This document shows, in pieces, positions 9,953 to 64,000 of a stretch of DNA of 64,000 nt; position 1 is the first letter of the stretch, and each line of letters starts with the position of its first letter. A program made the position numbers and the translations under genes. The stretch lies in assembly GCA_044226625.1 (NCBI GenBank), contig JBGAGQ010000006.1:96001-160000 (forward strand), read 5' to 3'. Below the pieces are notes generated by a model. That model had not been told where the DNA came from and did no database searches. It saw nothing but the letters and a program-made list of their open reading frames with translations. Origin of the DNA: Thermoanaerobaculia bacterium (GTDB lineage: Bacteria; Acidobacteriota; Thermoanaerobaculia; Multivoradales; UBA5704).

Positions 9953-11020
9953 TCAGCCGCCGGACGCAGGCACGTCCGGCAGCGCGGCGCGAAACGGCGG
10001 CAGCTCCGCGGGCTCGGTTTCGTGGAGCTTGCCCACGTCGATCGAAAGCGTGCCGTCGGGCGTCGGCGGGTTGAACAGGTTGACGAAGCGGGCGCCCCAG
10101 ATCATCTCGTCCGCGGTGTACGACGAGCGGGTGAGCACCGTTTGCGAGAACGTCTCGTCGAACGCCTGGATCAGGATCAGCAGCTCCGTGCTCGCCTCTT
10201 CGACCTCTTCGCGCGAAAGACCCCAGAGCGGGCTCGTCTCGTCGATCGGGTGGACCAGCGTCCAGGAGAGCGGGAAGAACTCGACGTGATCGCGCTCCAG
10301 CTTGAGCGGCAGGAATTCGCGTCCCATCCCCGCCACGCCGTCCCGGAAGCGGCCGAGGATCACCCGCGCCTCGACCTGGATCAGTTGGTTGCTCCGGCTG
10401 TTGGCGATCCGGAACATGAGCGCCCGGCCGTCGCGAAACGGCGCGACGATCGCCCGATCCGAAAACAGGACGCATGCTCCAGGGCGCGAGAAACGCGCGA
10501 AGACCAGCCCGGTGACGAGGGTCAGGCTGAGCAGGCCGGCGAGCGATTCCACCGTCACCAGCCAGTGGGCGACGAGCGAGTGGGGGCTGGTCGCGCCGTA
10601 GCCGATCGTCGCGAAGGTCTGGACGCTGAAGAAGAAATCCTGGAGGTAGATGTCGAGCGCTCCCGCCGACCGGTCGATTCCGAGCAGCGCCTCGGGTCCG
10701 CAGGCCCAGTAGGCGAAGCCGAACAGACCGTTGATCCCGAGATAGAGCGCGAGCACCAGGCCCAGGAAGCGGGGCCAGCTCGCGGTGAGAAGGAAGTGAT
10801 AGGGCGAGAGCGAGCGCCAGAACCCGAGACCCTCGCGCACGACGTTGAAGGTGCCGTTGCGGTTGAGCAGCCGGCGTCGGCTTTCGCGCGAGACGACGGC
10901 GCCGAAGCCGAGGTCCGGATTCGGGTCGAGCGGCGACGGGGAGCCCGACGGCGCGGGTCCGCCCCCCACCGCTCCGGCGGCCGGCCTCCCGGCGGAGGTC
11001 ACCTTCTTGCGGCCGATCAT
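9953..11020 (-). CDS. Inward-rectifier K+ channel (KirBac family)
   Basis: FFFSVQTFATIGYG selectivity filter, FARFSRP, LSWTLVHPIDETSPL cytoplasmic domain. Confidence 0.92.
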   Translation of the reverse strand: MIGRKKVTSAGRPAAGAVGGGPAPSGSPSPLDPNPDLGFGAVVSRESRRRLLNRNGTFNVVREGLGFWRSLSPYHFLLTASWPRFLGLVLALYLGINGLFGFAYWACGPEALLGIDRSAGALDIYLQDFFFSVQTFATIGYGATSPHSLVAHWLVTVESLAGLLSLTLVTGLVFARFSRPGACVLFSDRAIVAPFRDGRALMFRIANSRSNQLIQVEARVILGRFRDGVAGMGREFLPLKLERDHVEFFPLSWTLVHPIDETSPLWGLSREEVEEASTELLILIQAFDETFSQTVLTRSSYTADEMIWGARFVNLFNPPTPDGTLSIDVGKLHETEPAELPPFRAALPDVPASGG

Positions 11021-11063
11021 TGGCCCTAGCGTAGCAGCGTCCCGACGATATGCTCGGAGCGAC

Positions 11064-11834
11064 GTGGCGCTCGAATCCGCCGAAGCCCTGATCCTCTCCG
11101 TCTCGGACCTCCAGGACCGCGATCGCATCGTCGTCTTCCTCACCCGCGAGCACGGCCGGAAGAAAGGCGTCGCCAAGGGCTCCCGAACGCGCCACAGCCG
11201 CTTCGCCGGCCAGCTCCAGCCGCTCGCCAAGGCGGCGATCACCTGGTTTCAAAAGGAGGGGGCCGACCTGGTCCGGCTCTCCTCGGTCGAGCTGATCCGG
11301 CCCGCGGGTCCGCTGCTCGACCAGCTCGACGACATCCTGCTCGGCGCTTATCTCGCCGAGCACATGATCGAGTTCGCCCAGGAGGACGAGCCGAGCGAGG
11401 CGCTCTACCGCCTGCTCGACGCGACGCTCGAGGCGCTCCTTTCCGGCGTCGACCGGGACGCGGTCGCCCGTTACTTCGAGGCCTGGGTGCTCCGGCTCGC
11501 CGGAATCTTCCCCCCGCCGCGCGACTGCCCGGAATGCGGTGGCGACCTCGCGACGAAGGGGGCCGTCCTGCCCCGCGGCGGCGACGGCCTGCTCTGCGCC
11601 GACTGCGCCGACTCCGCTCACCGCGACGGGCGGACGCTCCAGCCGGGAACCCTCGATTTCCTGTTGCGAATCAGCCGCGTCCCCCCGGCGCTCGCAGGCG
11701 AGCCGAAGCCCCCCGCGGCGGTCCTCCGCCAGGTGGAAGAGCTGTGTACCGAGATACGCCGCGGTTTCCTGCAACACGAGCTCAAGAGCCGCCACGTGCT
11801 GGAGCAAATTCGCGGTCGGGTCGACACGCGGTAG
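11064..11834 (+). CDS. recO: DNA repair protein RecO
   Basis: DRIVVFLTREHG..GVAKG...SRFAGQLQP; YFEAWVLRLAG; CPECG..CADC zinc finger. Confidence 0.92.
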   Translation: MALESAEALILSVSDLQDRDRIVVFLTREHGRKKGVAKGSRTRHSRFAGQLQPLAKAAITWFQKEGADLVRLSSVELIRPAGPLLDQLDDILLGAYLAEHMIEFAQEDEPSEALYRLLDATLEALLSGVDRDAVARYFEAWVLRLAGIFPPPRDCPECGGDLATKGAVLPRGGDGLLCADCADSAHRDGRTLQPGTLDFLLRISRVPPALAGEPKPPAAVLRQVEELCTEIRRGFLQHELKSRHVLEQIRGRVDTR

Positions 11835-25811: not shown

Positions 25812-26267
25812 ATGGCCTCCGAGACCCCAAGGCACCGAGTGGAAACCGAGCTGCGCGCCGCCATGAAGGCGGGCGAAAAAGAGCGCCTGTCGACGCTCCG
25901 CATGCTGCTCACCGAGATCAACAACGAAGAGATCAAGAACGGCGAGGTGGACGAGGCCGGATTCGTCGCCTTGGTGCGCCGCGCGATCAAGCAGCGCGAC
26001 GACGCGGCCGAGCAGTTCGACAAGGGAGGCCGGCACGAGCTGGCTGAAAAAGAGCGGCGGGAAAAGGGGATCCTCGCCGGCTATCTGCCGGCCCAGGCGG
26101 ACGAAGGCGCGATCCGCGCCGCGGCCGTGGAGATCGCCGCGGCGGAAGGGCTCGCGTCGGGCGCCGGCATGGGGGCGCTCATGAAGGCCCTGCGCGAGAG
26201 GTTCGGCTCGAGCGCCGACGGAGCGACGCTCTCCCGGATCGCCAAAGAGGTCCTCTCCTCCCGCTGA
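25812..26267 (+). CDS. GatB/YqeY domain protein
   Basis: AMKAGEKERLSTLRML...IKQRDDAAEQF..GGR.ELA.KE..E..IL..YLP. Confidence 0.9.
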   Translation: MASETPRHRVETELRAAMKAGEKERLSTLRMLLTEINNEEIKNGEVDEAGFVALVRRAIKQRDDAAEQFDKGGRHELAEKERREKGILAGYLPAQADEGAIRAAAVEIAAAEGLASGAGMGALMKALRERFGSSADGATLSRIAKEVLSSR

Positions 26268-28198
26268 TGGGCAGATTCCTCGTCGGCACCGCCGGCCACA
26301 TCGATCACGGCAAGACCTCGCTGGTCCGGGCGCTCACCGGCATCGATTGCGACCGCTGGGCGGAGGAGAAGGCGCGCGGCATCACGATCGACCTCGGCTT
26401 CGCCCACCTCGTCCGGGGCGACCTCGAGATCGGATTCGTCGACGTGCCGGGGCACGAGCGCTTCCTCCACAACGCGCTCGCCGGGCTCGGCGGCATCCGC
26501 GCCATGCTGCTGGTCGTGGCGGCCGACGAGGGGGTCAAGCCGCAGACGCGGGAGCACCTCGCGGTCTGCTCCCTGCTCGGCATCCCCCACGGTCTGGTCG
26601 CCCTCACCAAGGTCGACCTCGTCTCCGAGGATCTGCGCGAGCTGGCCCAGCTCGAAATCGAAGAGTTGCTCGCGAAGACCCCTTTCGCCGGCGCGCCCAT
26701 CCTCCCCGTCTCGAGCTCGACCGGGGAGGGTCTCGCGGAGCTCGAAAGCGCGCTTCGATCGCTCGCCGAGCGCTCTATCCGGGAAACCCCGGCCGGGGAG
26801 ACCGATCCGGCTTCGTCCCCCGCGCGCCTGCCGATCGACCGCGCGTTCCATCTGAAGGGCCTCGGCGTCGTCGCAACCGGAACGCTCGCAAGCGGCGCGG
26901 TCCGCATCGGCGACACCCTCGAAGCGCTGCCCGGCGGCGAAAGGGTTCGGGTCCGAAGCATCCAGGTCCACGGCAAGCCGCACGAAACGGCCGAGGCCGG
27001 CGAGCGGACTTCGCTCCAGATCGCGGGCATGCCGCTCGAGGCGCTCTCGCGCGGGCTCAACCTGGTCGAGCCCGGGACGTTCGCCGCGTCCACCCGGCTG
27101 TTGGTCCGTTTCCGGCTCCTTCCCGATGCCCCCGCGGAAATCTCCGGGTATGTGCCGATCCGCCTCCATCTCTTCGCGAGCGAGGTCTACGGCCGCCTGC
27201 GGCCGCTCGGGCCGAACTCCCTGGCACCCGGCGAGAGTGGTCTCGCTGAGGTGCGCCTCGCGGCGCCGATCGTCGCCCGGCGCGGCGACCGGTTCGTCGT
27301 CCGGCGCCCCTCTCCGGCGGCGACGCTCGGCGGCGGCGAGGTGCTCGACCCGTTCTTCCGCCCTTACCGAGGCCGGCTGCTCGCCCCGGCGCTCGCCGCG
27401 CTGGGATCGCCGGACCTGCCCACCGCGCTCGCCTTCTGGGTCCTCGAGGCGGGGGAGCGCGGCGCGGAGATCGACGACCTCGCCCGGCGCCTCGGGGTAC
27501 GGCCGGCGACGATCGAGGCTCCGCTCCGGCGACTGACGAACCAGGGAAAACTGCTCGCCGTGCCGGCGGGACCCGGCCGAGACCGCCGATTCGTCGCCCC
27601 GGCCACCTACCAGCGCCTCGCCGAACGGGCGGCTCGGGTTCTGGCCGAGTATTTCGAGCGCGACCGGCTCGCCCTCTCGATCGGCAAGGCGGACGCCGTG
27701 CGGAAGATCGTCCGCGGCCGCGGCGCGGAGCTCGCCGACGTGTACCTCGATTGGCTCGGCAAGCAGAAGGTGCTGACCGTCTCGGAGGATCAGGTAACGC
27801 TTCCGGGGCGCGGCTCGCGCCTCACTTCGGAGGAGTCGGATCTCTCCACCCGGGTGCTCGCCCGGTTCGACTCCGGAGGGCTCGCTCCCCCTTCTCCGGG
27901 AGAAGTGAGCCAGGCGCTCTCGGCCAAACCGCAGATCGTCGACGGGGTGATCCGCCATCTGGTCGCCCGCGGCGAATTGGTGAAGCTCCCCTCGGGATTG
28001 ATCCTCGCCGCCTCGGCGGTCGCCGATCTCAAGCGCCGTCTGATCGCGACCGGATGGCCCCGCTTTTCGGTCCCTCAGTTCAAGGACCAGTTCGGCCTCT
28101 CGCGCAAATGGGCGATCCCGCTGCTAGAGCATCTCGATTCGACCGGCGTGACCCGTCGCCTGGGGGACGAACGGATGATCGTGCGTACGGACGGTTGA
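26267..28198 (+). CDS. selB: Selenocysteine-specific elongation factor
   Basis: GTAGHIDHGKT, EEKARGITIDLGF, DVPGHERF; C-terminal winged helices ending GLSRKWAIPLLEHLD. Confidence 0.95.
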   Translation: MGRFLVGTAGHIDHGKTSLVRALTGIDCDRWAEEKARGITIDLGFAHLVRGDLEIGFVDVPGHERFLHNALAGLGGIRAMLLVVAADEGVKPQTREHLAVCSLLGIPHGLVALTKVDLVSEDLRELAQLEIEELLAKTPFAGAPILPVSSSTGEGLAELESALRSLAERSIRETPAGETDPASSPARLPIDRAFHLKGLGVVATGTLASGAVRIGDTLEALPGGERVRVRSIQVHGKPHETAEAGERTSLQIAGMPLEALSRGLNLVEPGTFAASTRLLVRFRLLPDAPAEISGYVPIRLHLFASEVYGRLRPLGPNSLAPGESGLAEVRLAAPIVARRGDRFVVRRPSPAATLGGGEVLDPFFRPYRGRLLAPALAALGSPDLPTALAFWVLEAGERGAEIDDLARRLGVRPATIEAPLRRLTNQGKLLAVPAGPGRDRRFVAPATYQRLAERAARVLAEYFERDRLALSIGKADAVRKIVRGRGAELADVYLDWLGKQKVLTVSEDQVTLPGRGSRLTSEESDLSTRVLARFDSGGLAPPSPGEVSQALSAKPQIVDGVIRHLVARGELVKLPSGLILAASAVADLKRRLIATGWPRFSVPQFKDQFGLSRKWAIPLLEHLDSTGVTRRLGDERMIVRTDG

Positions 28199-32282: not shown

Positions 32283-33751
32283 TCACCCCGTTCGATCTTG
32301 CAGTCGGTCCGGAGCGCGCATCGAACCTGAGAGGCTTTCGTCCCGCCGGTCGAGAAGAGGGGCCAACACCCACGCTCCTCCGAAGGTGGAGAAGGTGCCG
32401 AGGACGACCAGCCAGGTCCAGCCTAGGGGGATCAGCTTCTTCTCGGAGAGGATCAGCAGCGCCAGCATCAGCGCCGCGCTTGCGATCATCGCGACCAGGT
32501 TCGCGCGGTTTGCCCGGCGCTTCGTGACTAGGCCGAGCAAAAAGACTCCAAGGAGCGAGCCGAAGGTGACGCCGCCAATCTTGAAGGCGAGCCAGAGGAT
32601 CTTGTCGAACGAGCTGAACCAGAAGGCGAGCAGGGCGAGGACGACGCCGAAACCGACGATGCTTACGCGCGACGCGGCCAGGTAGTGGCCGTCGCCGGCC
32701 GGCCGGCCGAGCTTCTCGCGGAGCGGCTGATAGACGTCCGTGATGAACGAGGTCGCGAGGGCGGCGAGCGGCGAGTCGATGCTCGCGAGGACGATCGACG
32801 ACAGCATCAATCCGCGCAGGAAGCCGGGCATTGCGTGGCCGATGAAGTGGGGAAAGATCGCCTCGAGGTTCGCCGGGAGCCCCTCCGACGGATTCTGCGC
32901 GTAGAAGGCGTAGAGGGCGGTGCCGATCGCGAGATGGATGACCAGCACGAACAGGCTCACCCCCGTGGTCCAGAGCATCGTCCTCTGACTCGACTTTCGG
33001 GTCTCGACGGTGAGCAGTCGCTGCATCAGGTCCTGATCGGTGCCGCAGCAAGGGACGGCCCCCAATGGAACAGGCTCAGCCGGCCCGCCGGCTCGGCGAG
33101 CGCGAGCGCGCCGGAGAATCCGCCGTCAATTCGCGACAAGAGGAACGCGAGCGTCGCAATTCCCCCGACGACGATCACCACGGCCTGGATCACGTTGGTC
33201 CAGATGACCGCCCGCATACCGCCGAGCCCCATGTAAAGGATGCTCACGACGATGAAGCCCGCGATCACCGGCGCGATCGGCCAGCCGAGAAGGACCGAGA
33301 CGGCGAGGCAGGCGGCCATCAAGCGCACGCCCGAACCGAGCAAGCGGGTGACGAAGAAGAAGATCGCCGCCGTGCTCTGGGTGAGCCGGCCGAACCGGCG
33401 CCCCAGAAACTGGTAGATCGAGGTGCAGTCGAATTTGTAGAACGCCGGGATGAACAGGAAGGCGATCGCCAGCCGCGCCGCGATCGAGCCGAGGAAGATC
33501 TGCAGGTACTGCCAGTTCTCGCGGAATGCCGTAGCCGGCACCGAAATGATCGTGACCGCGCTTACCTCGGTCGCCACGAACGCGAGACAGGCGGCCCACG
33601 CGGGAATCCGACGTTGGCCGAGAAAGAACTCGGAGGTCGAAGTCTGGCGCCGCTCGAACAGCGCGCCGATGGCCACCATCGCGAGCAACAGGACCCCGAG
33701 GACGACGAAATCCTCCCAGCCGATCAAAGACTGTCCACCGAAGAGATTCAA
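32283..33751 (-). pseudogene. Sodium:solute symporter (SSS) split by a frameshift near 33050
   Basis: N-half EFFLGQR..PAW...ATEVSAVT ends FHWGPSL; C-half resumes in another frame with GTDQDLMQRLL. Confidence 0.8.
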
Positions 33752-33937
33752 ACCATTCGCTTCCTTTCCCGGGAGCGGAAAGCTTCGCACATCGGCGCGA
33801 CGGAGCCCACGCTCGGGCTAATACCCCTGCGCCTCGGTGCCGTCCTAACGGCTCGCGAGCGAGCTTTTCCGCGCCATTCTGCCGATCCGGCGCAAGATGC
33901 CGCAGCCGCGACACCGTAGACCTTGAGAGCGTTCGCC

Positions 33938-39151: not shown

Positions 39152-44692
<5,541 letters not shown>

Positions 44693-61519: not shown

Positions 61520-62650
61520 ATGAGAAAATCGTCGTACGTCATCTCGATCGCAGCGGCTTGGGTGGTCTGCGCGACGTCACCCTTCTCGGGTCAACCGCCT
61601 CCGGGCACGCATCCTCGGCTGACCGTGGTCAACGGCTGCGCGTCCGGCCCGATTTGGGTCTTCTACCAGGTCGGTTCGGGCGGCGGCAGCTTGCCGAATC
61701 CGATCGGCGTGCTCTCCAACGGCGGCGGCCCGGTGAGCTCGCCTGGCGATCCGGTCCAACTGGCTCCCCGGCAGTCCGTGAGCTTCTACATTCCGGACAT
61801 GGGGATCGCGGCGACCCGGTTCTGGGCGGGATACGGCTGCGATTCCGACGGGAACAACTGCCAGCTGGGCGACAGCGGCGGCGCCCAAGGGAACTTGATC
61901 CTGCCCTGCCCCGCGGCCGGATGCGCGCCGCCGGTGGACTCCAAGATCGAGGGAACGTTCGGCTGTATTCCCGGCGTCACGCCGTGCCAAAAGAATCCGT
62001 CGAACGGCCAGCCGCTCACGGCGACGGATTGGATCGACACTTCGATGGTCGACGGCTTCACGCTGCCCTACAAGGCGACCGTCAGCGGCACTTGCGAGAG
62101 CGCGCCGAAAAACAACACGATCGATTGCACGCGCCTGGCCCCGAGCGTCTGTCCGACCGGCGACAACCTCTCGTACAACCTGAAGAACCAGAGCGTGTAC
62201 CCGGCGTTCGCGAGCATGAACTTGAACCTCACCAACCCGTCGCAGAACACGAAATGGGCCGGCACCTGGGCCGGCTGCTACGCTCCGGGCTCGATCCTGA
62301 CGATGAACAACTGGGGCAACGCCCCCGCCAACCTGCCGAACGCCCCGCAGCCGGCCGGCGGCCACGCTCCCGGCGTCTACAGCCCGACCGATACGGTCGC
62401 TGCGCCTTATACCTGCGGGGGAATCACCTCTCCTCAGTGCAACGCGGGCCCGGTGGTGAACACGAAGTACGTCGCGGCGATCCACAAATACTGCCCGCAG
62501 ACCTACGCCTTCGCGTACGACGATCAAAACGGCCTGTTCCAGTGCAACGCGGCTACGAGCACCAGCTATACGATGACTTTCTACTGTCCGGCGGCGGGTG
62601 CGCCGACGAATGCGACCGCGAAAGCCAAGGCGAACAAGCCGGGCTCGTAG
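61520..62650 (+). CDS. Secreted thaumatin-like (PR-5 family) protein
   Basis: Signal peptide; VVNGC..PIW, RFWAGYGC, KIEGTF, IDTSMVDGFTLP, KYCPQTYAFAYDD, YTMTFYCP; Cys-rich. Confidence 0.85.
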   Translation: MRKSSYVISIAAAWVVCATSPFSGQPPPGTHPRLTVVNGCASGPIWVFYQVGSGGGSLPNPIGVLSNGGGPVSSPGDPVQLAPRQSVSFYIPDMGIAATRFWAGYGCDSDGNNCQLGDSGGAQGNLILPCPAAGCAPPVDSKIEGTFGCIPGVTPCQKNPSNGQPLTATDWIDTSMVDGFTLPYKATVSGTCESAPKNNTIDCTRLAPSVCPTGDNLSYNLKNQSVYPAFASMNLNLTNPSQNTKWAGTWAGCYAPGSILTMNNWGNAPANLPNAPQPAGGHAPGVYSPTDTVAAPYTCGGITSPQCNAGPVVNTKYVAAIHKYCPQTYAFAYDDQNGLFQCNAATSTSYTMTFYCPAAGAPTNATAKAKANKPGS

Positions 62651-62789
62651 ATGAGTCCGGCGGTCGGATTCAGATGCCGGCCTCTAGCTGTCACGTAGCA
62701 CGACCCCACGGGCACTCACTTGATTAAGGTCGTATTGTAACAAGGAATTCGGCCTGGGTGCGTTTCGTCCACGACGAGGGAGAGTCGCC

Positions 62790-62966
62790 ATGAAGAGGAA
62801 ATCGAAAAAGCTGAGTTTGCGCCGTGAGACTCTGACCGCTCACCATTCCTCAGGCCACGCTGTCGGCGGCGCCACCATGAGCGCATGTCTTCCAGAGACA
62901 GGGTGCCAAACCTGCCATGAGACTTGCTTTTCGTATTGCGAGTCCTGCATTCGTGCGGGTTGCTAG
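62790..62966 (+). CDS. Double-glycine-leader RiPP precursor (lanthipeptide-like), 58 aa
   Basis: Manual translation MKRKSKKLSLRRETLTAHHSSGHAVGG|ATMSACLPETGCQTCHETCFSYCESCIRAGC; RBS GAGGGAG; below the ORF-track size cutoff. Confidence 0.85.
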   Translation: MKRKSKKLSLRRETLTAHHSSGHAVGGATMSACLPETGCQTCHETCFSYCESCIRAGC

Positions 62967-63088
62967 GGGCACGTACCCGACGAAGCGATAGCGTCCTCGG
63001 GCCGGGTTTGATGTTCAGGACCGCAGCAGGTCCTGGTCTGGGCGTTTAGGCGTCGCGATGAATCGGCTCGATCGAGCGAGTACGGGCA

Positions 63089-63493
63089 CTAAGTGATCAC
63101 CGGCGGCAGCTTGGCCGCGATCTCCATCCACTCCTCGACCATGCTCGGGATCGGTACGCGGCGCGTCAGGTTTCTGGCGGCGTTGATCTCGGCCAGTTTG
63201 CGGGCGAGCTGGGTCGGCCGCCGGGCTCTCAGCTCTCGGATCGAATCGACGCCCGCTCCCAGGAGCAGCTCGGCGTACTGGCGGCCGATGCCGCGAACCC
63301 TCATCAGATCGGCGATGTTGGCCCATCGGAGCAGCTGCGCCTCAGAAATTCCGCTCTGAGCGGCGACTCGCTTCCTGCCGCCGGGGTCGGAGCATCGCTT
63401 GAGGAGTCCGGAGATCGTCTTGATCCCACAACGCTCGAGCTCGGCCGCGAAGCCCGGACCGATCTCCTCGACCTCGTGAACGGCGTAGCTCAT
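63089..63493 (-). CDS. DUF4332 domain (helix-hairpin-helix) protein
   Basis: GGAGG RBS; EIGP..A..L...GI.T, WANIADLMRVRGIG.QYAELL..AGVD. Confidence 0.88.
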   Translation of the reverse strand: MSYAVHEVEEIGPGFAAELERCGIKTISGLLKRCSDPGGRKRVAAQSGISEAQLLRWANIADLMRVRGIGRQYAELLLGAGVDSIRELRARRPTQLARKLAEINAARNLTRRVPIPSMVEEWMEIAAKLPPVIT

Positions 63494-63599
63494 GCCCGAT
63501 CCTCCTGGATGACGGCTCGCAGGCTGGGAAGCACGAAGAGCCTGTCACCGATTACGCGACCGCGGGGCAAATGTTGGGCCACTCGGGGGCCCACTCCGG

Positions 63600-64000
63600 T
63601 CATCCGGCGTGGGCGAGGTTCCCCGCCTCCGAGGCGAAGGTCGACACGGACTCCGCGGGTCCGATCTCCAGCTCGAGCATTCGCCCGCCCATCGGCGCGA
63701 GCAACAGCTTGCGGCCTTGATCTAGGTCTTCGATCTCCAGGGCCCCGGTCGTGATCTCGGCCAGCAGGAACGCGCATCCTCCCGCCGCGTCGCCATGGAA
63801 CCGCCAGCCGGCGCGCAAACGCTGCCACCGGGTGGACGACCAGGCGCCCAGGGTCCCCCAGGGCAACAGCAGCCGAGAGCCGAGCCCGGCGGCCTGCAAG
63901 CCGGCGGCTCCCCCGATCCGGGGCACGAGGCTTCCGAGATCGAGCCCGGCCGCGAGGAGATCGGTTTCGAGGTCCGCCTCGAGACCGGCCACGCCGCCCG
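63600..64000 (-). CDS. 3' end of a hypothetical protein (probably starts beyond window)
   Basis: Open frame with host-like codon usage; no family recognised. Confidence 0.4.
   Translation of the reverse strand, partial: GGVAGLEADLETDLLAAGLDLGSLVPRIGGAAGLQAAGLGSRLLLPWGTLGAWSSTRWQRLRAGWRFHGDAAGGCAFLLAEITTGALEIEDLDQGRKLLLAPMGGRMLELEIGPAESVSTFASEAGNLAHAG

Follow-up and report, generated by a model that had tools for sequence, protein, structure and literature searches.

In this study, we asked whether a 58-aa open reading frame (ORF) in an uncultured soil Acidobacteriota genome, which encodes a peptide with a double-glycine leader and a Cys-rich core and lies without LanB or LanC in its own gene cluster, represents a genuine lanthipeptide precursor, and which enzymes could mature its product. 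The source genome is a MAG of 6.6 Mb in 133 contigs, with 97.9% completeness and 5.5% contamination. The window, meaning the whole stretch of 64,000 nucleotides that was analyzed (G000:C93:96001-160000), had 45 ORFs called, and 43 of these plus the ORF encoding MoeA were scanned with Pfam.

The reading frame and its surroundings

The precursor ORF comprises the following features, with positions given in the window:

62776..62782, + strand: Shine-Dalgarno-like GAGGGAG, 7 nt 5' of the precursor ATG
62790..62966, + strand: precursor ORF, ATG start, 58 aa
62790..62870, + strand: leader peptide, residues 1-27, with a basic N-terminus, an LxLxRET motif, and a Gly26-Gly27 end
62871..62963, + strand: core peptide, residues 28-58, 31 residues with 7 Cys and 7 Ser/Thr
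62964..62966, + strand: stop codon TAG of the precursor ORF

The sequence and its translation confirmed the ribosome-binding site, the GG at residues 26-27, and the 31-aa core with seven Cys and seven Ser/Thr that a first-pass annotation of this DNA had described. In translation, the core Cys spacing is C-x2-C-x3-C-x3-C-x2-C, and a Ser/Thr occupies the -5 position of four of the seven Cys. The ORF had also been called hidden, and it is indeed shorter than the 60-aa default listing threshold; moreover, its exact sequence was not found in a collection of 15 billion proteins, in which two paralogues from contig C4 are present. Given that it is missing from this collection, the precursor is unannotated in public data.

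The neighboring genes encode MoeA, a thaumatin-family protein, and a convergent DUF4332 protein, and the scanned ORFs of the window show housekeeping genes. The 376-aa thaumatin-family protein (61520-62650, + strand; PF00314, E = 8.7e-12) is encoded on the same strand, 139 nt upstream of the precursor, and belongs to a family known chiefly from plants and fungi. Elsewhere, the window encodes a protein whose C-terminal domain is that of inward-rectifier K+ channels (IRK_C; 9953-11242, - strand) and the selenocysteine elongation factor SelB (26267-28198, + strand). At 32283-33790 (- strand), two ORFs (260 and 254 aa) overlap, each corresponding to one half of the sodium:solute symporter family, and could represent a frameshifted gene or an assembly error.

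The composition of the precursor ORF is unusual. The first-pass annotation had remarked on codons ending in A/T, unlike those of the host, and this was borne out by a GC content of 0.56 and a GC3 of 0.62, the lowest among 49 scored paralogues (mean GC3 = 0.857; next lowest = 0.73). The ORF is also contained in a local GC dip of 0.57-0.59 (62600-63100), compared to a genome GC of 67.7%. Relaxed selection, recent acquisition, or low expression could account for this low GC3. A scan of positions 62300-63600 for promoters and terminators retrieved no sigma-70-like promoter; the only terminator-like sites, two in number, are on the minus strand within the upstream gene. A composition like that of intergenic DNA, a sequence missing from the protein collection, and no promoter or terminator called nearby would together fit an ORF that arose by chance in GC-poor intergenic DNA, and would then be no gene at all.

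Conservation argues otherwise. A genome of the same genus (G005) encodes a 61-aa relative, identical to P0002, which shares 55% identity with the precursor (E = 5.6e-9 in the per-genome search; E = 7.4e-5 against 1.84 billion proteins). All seven Cys align between the two peptides, the core motif PETGC-x2-CHETC is common to both, and different codons are used at 16 of the 30 identical residues. Given that this relative is conserved at the protein level, the precursor is more than a chance ORF, and together with the Shine-Dalgarno site and the match to a known leader family described below, this conservation renders a chance origin extremely improbable. We conclude that the ORF is very probably a real gene of the LanA family.

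The distribution of this particular peptide is narrow. A phmmer search with the precursor against 1.84 billion representatives returned two matches, one of which was judged real; the other, a protein of 884 aa with Cys-rich repeats (P0001), was judged spurious. A protein search by shared words yielded no candidate with three 5-residue words of the precursor, sequence searches did not find the core outside two related genomes, and a counterpart was clear in one of the seven same-genus genomes searched.

Leader family and divergence of the precursor

Following the suggestion of the first-pass annotation that similar leaders might be found among short ORFs elsewhere in the genome, we searched with a regular expression for the leader, which retrieved 16 short ORFs. 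A leader HMM built from these 16 then matched 51 short ORFs at E ≤ 0.05, plus four weaker ones that looked genuine by eye, a search that is partly circular in that the model was built from 16 of the ORFs it recovers; a few false matches occurred in long proteins and on contig C46. Counted from the HMM matches, the genome encodes approximately 55 leader-bearing precursor ORFs distributed over 33 contigs, and a GGAG/AGGAG-like stretch precedes nearly all of the 52 listed paralogues. As an independent curated check, we used the NCBIfam model NF038153 (lant_leader_L1a, "class I lanthipeptide"; cut-off 22 bits), which matched 35 places in the genome at E ≤ 1, 24 at E ≤ 0.05, and six above the cut-off, and had no match at E ≤ 0.05 in any of 14 control genomes. 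In related genomes, the number of matches at E ≤ 0.05 reached up to 38.

Upstream regions provided no shared signal beyond the putative ribosome-binding sites. Enrichment analysis of k-mers in the 200 nt upstream of 52 precursors produced nothing convincing, with no 8-mer present in eight or more of them, and sigma-54 promoter scores in these 52 regions had a distribution like that of 5000 random regions, with a single paralogue reaching a best match of 10/12 and the precursor a best match of 5/12.

The leader of the precursor had been attributed to the Gram-negative class I type that is cleaved by C39 peptidases. This attribution agrees with Walker et al. (2020; PMC7268733), who describe class I LanAs from Bacteroidetes as having an LxLxKx5L leader, often with GG at its end, and a cluster that also encodes a C39 protease. 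A 22-row alignment of the family is invariant only at M1, L8, L10, and one Cys. The precursor has L8-x-L10-x-R12, with His18 at the position of the last Leu of LxLxKx5L, where at least 90% of the 22 aligned members have Leu. It scores 14.9-15.0 bits with NF038153, below the 22-bit cut-off, and matches only positions 1-19 of the 32 in the model. Gly26-Gly27 is present, and residues -4 and -7 from the cut site are Ala and Ser, respectively; most aligned paralogues are hydrophobic in the leader part around this Ser. In the section of a review that deals with LahT150 (PMC12328550), -4 and -7 are the positions restricting cleavage by this protease. From these features, we place the precursor within the LxLxKx5L...GG (L1a) leader family of Gram-negative class I lanthipeptides, as a divergent member whose leader is atypical by the same comparison.

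This divergence brings forward the main rival to maturation in trans, namely that the precursor is a decaying or non-functional LanA paralogue, no longer recognized by LanB or the exporter and drifting toward intergenic composition. The lowest GC3 of all 49 paralogues, the local GC dip, His18 in place of a near-invariant Leu, a second leader half without NF038153 match, and the six of seven same-genus genomes in which no counterpart was found are all consistent with decay. However, the reading frame is intact and has a well-placed Shine-Dalgarno site, and the seven Cys and the PETGC-x2-CHETC motif were kept relative to the G005 peptide, even though 16 of the 30 identical residues are encoded by different, synonymous codons. 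Furthermore, the G005 copy has a lowered GC3 as well (0.74), which means that this composition may characterize the subfamily instead of indicating decay. We therefore regard decay as unlikely.

Modification enzymes, exporter, and core chemistry

The genome encodes one full-length LanB (C93:86992-90363, 1123 aa), with Lant_dehydr_N (572 bits) and Lant_dehydr_C (229 bits) domains. This gene is located on the same contig as the window, ending approximately 5.6 kb before the window start and 68 kb upstream of the precursor, and is flanked by genes for a solute-binding protein, three ORFs without family match, and glycine-cleavage genes. The three ORFs, directly downstream of LanB (283, 235, and 124 aa; C93:90427-92465, - strand), match no family in Pfam or NCBIfam; two of them are also found beside LanB in the closest relatives, with 44-76% identity (L034-L037), and these ORFs could be unrecognized accessory genes. 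Two stand-alone LanCs of approximately 430 aa each are encoded at C4:58628-59944 and C114:7232-8530. The C4 LanC, aligned to the solved LanC 8byk, has the WCYG and CHG motifs, and its gene is directly followed by one for a YtnP-like lactonase of the metallo-beta-lactamase fold (L011 9955-10824, on contig C4; 193.8 bits, below cut-off). The LanM N-terminal domain PF13575 was not found in this 97.9% complete genome, an absence that is weakly shown, as the domain had no match in the control genomes either.

Within the window, the first-pass annotation had reported no gene for LanB, LanC, LanM, or a radical-SAM enzyme, which stands for the 45 ORFs called and scanned as stated above, but it had overlooked the only Peptidase_C39 match of the genome:

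36017..38380, + strand: peptidase-containing ABC transporter (PCAT), 787 aa, with Peptidase_C39 (86.1 bits), ABC_membrane, and ABC_tran domains

The best NCBIfam match of this exporter is NHLM_micro_ABC1 (622.9 bits, below the cut-off of 853), and its entire length can be aligned to ComA 8hf7 and PCAT1 4ry2. Q-x6-DCG, NHF, and DP motifs are present, which we take to represent the catalytic Cys, His, and Asp. We propose that this protein is the leader protease and exporter of the precursors. Just downstream of the exporter region, an ORF called at 1846 aa (39152-44692, - strand) has six DUF11 repeats and a Calx-beta domain in its C-terminal 1606 aa, the part that was scanned.

The genes for LanB, the LanCs, and the exporter are not linked with one another, and 52 of the 55 precursors are linked with none of them. 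LanB is separated from the exporter by 45 kb, both the exporter and the C114 LanC are isolated, and only the C4 LanC is preceded by precursors, of which there are three. The proposal that the precursor is a stand-alone member of many dispersed ones sharing one synthetase thus fits the genome well, which has approximately 55 such ORFs, one LanB, two LanCs, and one exporter, so that both leader homologues and modifying enzymes are present. The explanation that we favor, and consider probable on these grounds, is that the precursor is a class I LanA, one of approximately 55 dispersed in the genome, and is matured in trans by shared, unlinked enzymes. The leader would dock on LanB, a tRNA-Glu-dependent enzyme, which would dehydrate Ser/Thr of the core to Dha/Dhb. 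One of the LanCs would add the seven Cys thiols to Dha/Dhb, generating a heavily ring-bridged peptide in which four rings may have i-to-i+5 spacing, and the C39 exporter would cut after Gly26-Gly27 and export the core.

Structure prediction provided weak support for binding of the precursor by LanB. The predicted complex of LanB residues 1-800 and the precursor had a score of 0.49, with 0.00 for the best of three controls, and the runs had a contact agreement of at least 26% and a partner pLDDT of at least 39. Of 80 solved complexes, 58 reached the mark used for such predictions, as did 2 of 110 mismatched pairs; with scores of 0.60 or lower, where this prediction falls, only seven of the 80 solved complexes reached it, along with both passing mismatches. 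A LanB-leader complex has been solved (NisB-NisA), and the pass may therefore reflect likeness only.

Core composition is informative about the chemistry. Across 49 cores, Cys, Thr, and Ser represent 17.4%, 15.3%, and 8.2% of residues, respectively, and the Ser/Thr count equals or exceeds the Cys count in 48. In a test of Ser/Thr positions based on 1000 within-core shuffles of the 49 cores, Ser/Thr were enriched at -5 (z = 9.2) and -1 (z = 6.3) relative to Cys and depleted at +5 (z = -4.0). Placement of Ser/Thr N-terminal to Cys is the directional pattern that lanthionine formation would predict, and in the precursor core, the four Ser/Thr at -5 may allow overlapping i-to-i+5 rings. Cys counts are even in 24 cores and odd in 25, and this lack of an even-number bias argues against a purely disulfide design. 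Altogether, the core statistics favor thioether chemistry over disulfides.

These statistics bear on a second rival, in which the precursor would be an unmodified, disulfide-bonded or metal-binding double-glycine peptide, cut and exported by the C39 exporter without lanthionines. Such a peptide would likewise have a GG site and a C39 exporter in its genome, its core would be Cys-rich, and no adjacent lan enzyme gene would be expected, all of which apply here. On the other hand, the precursor has an odd number of seven Cys, in line with the mixed parity across the family, Ser/Thr are at least as numerous as Cys in nearly all cores and lie preferentially N-terminal to them, and the number of leader copies follows the occurrence of this LanB type among relatives, as detailed below. 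We thus find an unmodified peptide decidedly unlikely and retain lanthionine formation in trans as the preferred reading.

The first-pass annotation had further noted a resemblance to SCIFF ranthipeptides, based on Cys spacing, and the genome was accordingly searched for SPASM radical-SAM genes along with the lan genes. Two were found in the genome, and one of these (C17:4223-5590) is located directly upstream of a paralogous precursor with an L1a leader, an arrangement that, together with the spacing C-x2-C-x3-C-x3-C-x2-C, would suit a radical-SAM-modified peptide (ranthipeptide or sactipeptide, SCIFF-like) whose SPASM enzyme is encoded elsewhere than in the window, where no such gene is present. 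Nevertheless, when the peptide was scanned against NCBIfam at E ≤ 10, only the lanthipeptide leader model and a spurious match to FtsH were obtained. The C17 enzyme best matches AhbD heme b synthase and NirJ2 (290 and 278 bits, respectively) and is encoded beside cytochrome oxidase genes, and we read its adjacency to that paralogue as probably coincidental. The other enzyme, encoded on contig C31, resembles StsB, and upstream of it lie precursors of its own whose MDLKxLxP leader is unrelated. With no match to the SCIFF model and both SPASM genes otherwise accounted for, we rejected the SCIFF/ranthipeptide reading, which we judge highly improbable.

Both SPASM loci have features of their own. 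The C17 protein (L010, 4223-5986 region) carries a C-terminal PCP_red domain, and its AhbD and NirJ2 matches are below the cut-offs. The C31 locus (C31:29263-33086; L013 3263-7086) is a separate RiPP-like cluster in which two or three small ORFs with MDLKxLxP-type leaders and Gly/Ser/Cys-rich tails are followed by genes for the SPASM enzyme, which matches the sactipeptide maturase StsB best (183.6 bits, below cut-off), and for an ABC transporter that lacks a peptidase domain.

Related genomes and known systems

The nearest named relatives of the LanB, at 82-85% identity, are encoded by Thermoanaerobaculia, Holophagales, and Acidobacteriota MAGs. Among 41 related genomes, 23 have the L1a leader (NF038153, E ≤ 0.05), 14 of them with at least 10 copies. 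The high-scoring LanB type, whole or in pieces, was present in 22 of the 23 leader-bearing genomes and in 2 of the 18 leader-free ones when score rows were read by eye, counts that are descriptive rather than a statistical test given that these genomes are kin and not independent.

In four loci of relatives (G024:C142, G027:C11, G027:C7, and G030:C127), an exporter, one or more LanAs, LanC, and LanB occur within a few kb. The LanA of G027:C11, which sits between exporter and LanC, is 38% identical to the precursor and has the core segment C-x-[DE]-T-C-F-x2-C in common with it. Exporter homologues adjoin this LanB type in five genomes (G005, G013, G024, G027, and G030), and LanB and the exporter are next to each other in G005 and 43 kb apart in G001, similar to the 45 kb found here. 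We also examined 80 public LanB loci, comprising the seven closest (75-85% identity) and 73 more distant ones. Within the fetched flank, 53 of the distant loci have LanC, 24 a leader match, and 20 an exporter, and none of the seven closest has LanC within 6 kb. In 121 genomes sampled across the class, the leader was found in 10, with more than 10 copies in four; given that so few genomes have it, break-up of the cluster and expansion of precursors are traits of this lineage.

From these observations, we tentatively suggest that this lineage may run a natural combinatorial library of class I lanthipeptides, an idea for which we would give slightly less than even chances. In each genome, tens of hypervariable precursors would be served by a single LanB, a single exporter, and two to four LanCs that are not linked, the repertoire would turn over fast, in line with a counterpart in one of seven congeners, and Ser/Thr-x4-Cys would give rise to overlapping, ladder-like rings, a topology that, like such substrate tolerance of a LanB, is not described for class I.

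If maturation in trans holds true, there would be a class I equivalent of the natural one-enzyme, many-substrate lanthipeptide systems that are documented for class II (ProcM and SyncM) and valued as engineering platforms, and LanB/LanC pairs could also serve a large, fast-evolving peptide library. No account of a class I system with many dispersed precursors came up in a literature search that excluded supplementary files and subscription journals, where one may have been published. According to the excerpted methods of Walker et al. (2020; PMC7268733), their search was limited to seven genes on either side of a LanC-domain protein, and 52 of the 55 precursors in our genome are located outside any LanC-centered neighborhood of this kind. 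Maturation in trans would thus explain why cluster-based genome mining misses nearly all such precursors, and hundreds of unexplored peptide cores are indicated in uncultured soil Acidobacteriota.

Compared to known systems, the precursor gene adds a new, divergent member to the L1a family of class I LanAs, which is already known. Characterized class I peptides with GG leaders (pinensin, Ped15.1/15.2, thalassomonasins, and viridisins) are operon-encoded with few LanAs (PMC9680876). The precursor shares with pinensin-type L1a systems a basic N-terminus, the LxLx[KR] motif, a GG site, and a core rich in Cys, Ser, and Thr, as well as a separate LanB, LanC, and C39 peptidase exporter in the genome. 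Unlike in those operons, the enzymes here are unlinked and the LanAs number about 55 on 33 contigs, and unlike pinensin-type LanAs, the precursor falls under the NF038153 cut-off and is devoid of the last Leu of the motif. With SCIFF and ranthipeptide precursors, it shares the close Cys spacing C-x2-C-x3-C, but it differs from them in having another leader, no match to the SCIFF model, and no partner maturase. The clusters G027:C11, G027:C7, G024:C142, and G030:C127 resemble our system in LanB type (552-580 bits), leader family, and exporter type, but have all parts within a few kb, whereas LanB in the genus of the window is without LanC within 6 kb in any of the seven closest loci.

The layout most closely recalls that of the prochlorosins and SyncAs of marine cyanobacteria, for which 29 ProcA precursors are cited for ProcM and 79 SyncA precursors for SyncM, both class II. 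As in those systems, tens of precursors combine a conserved leader with hypervariable cores, and many are encoded far from very few enzymes. Prochlorosin and SyncA systems, however, use one bifunctional LanM and Nif11/NHLP-type leaders, in contrast to the LanB, LanCs, and L1a leader described here. By analogy, therefore, our system would work like the prochlorosin/ProcM layout, as a class I counterpart but not a member of that family.
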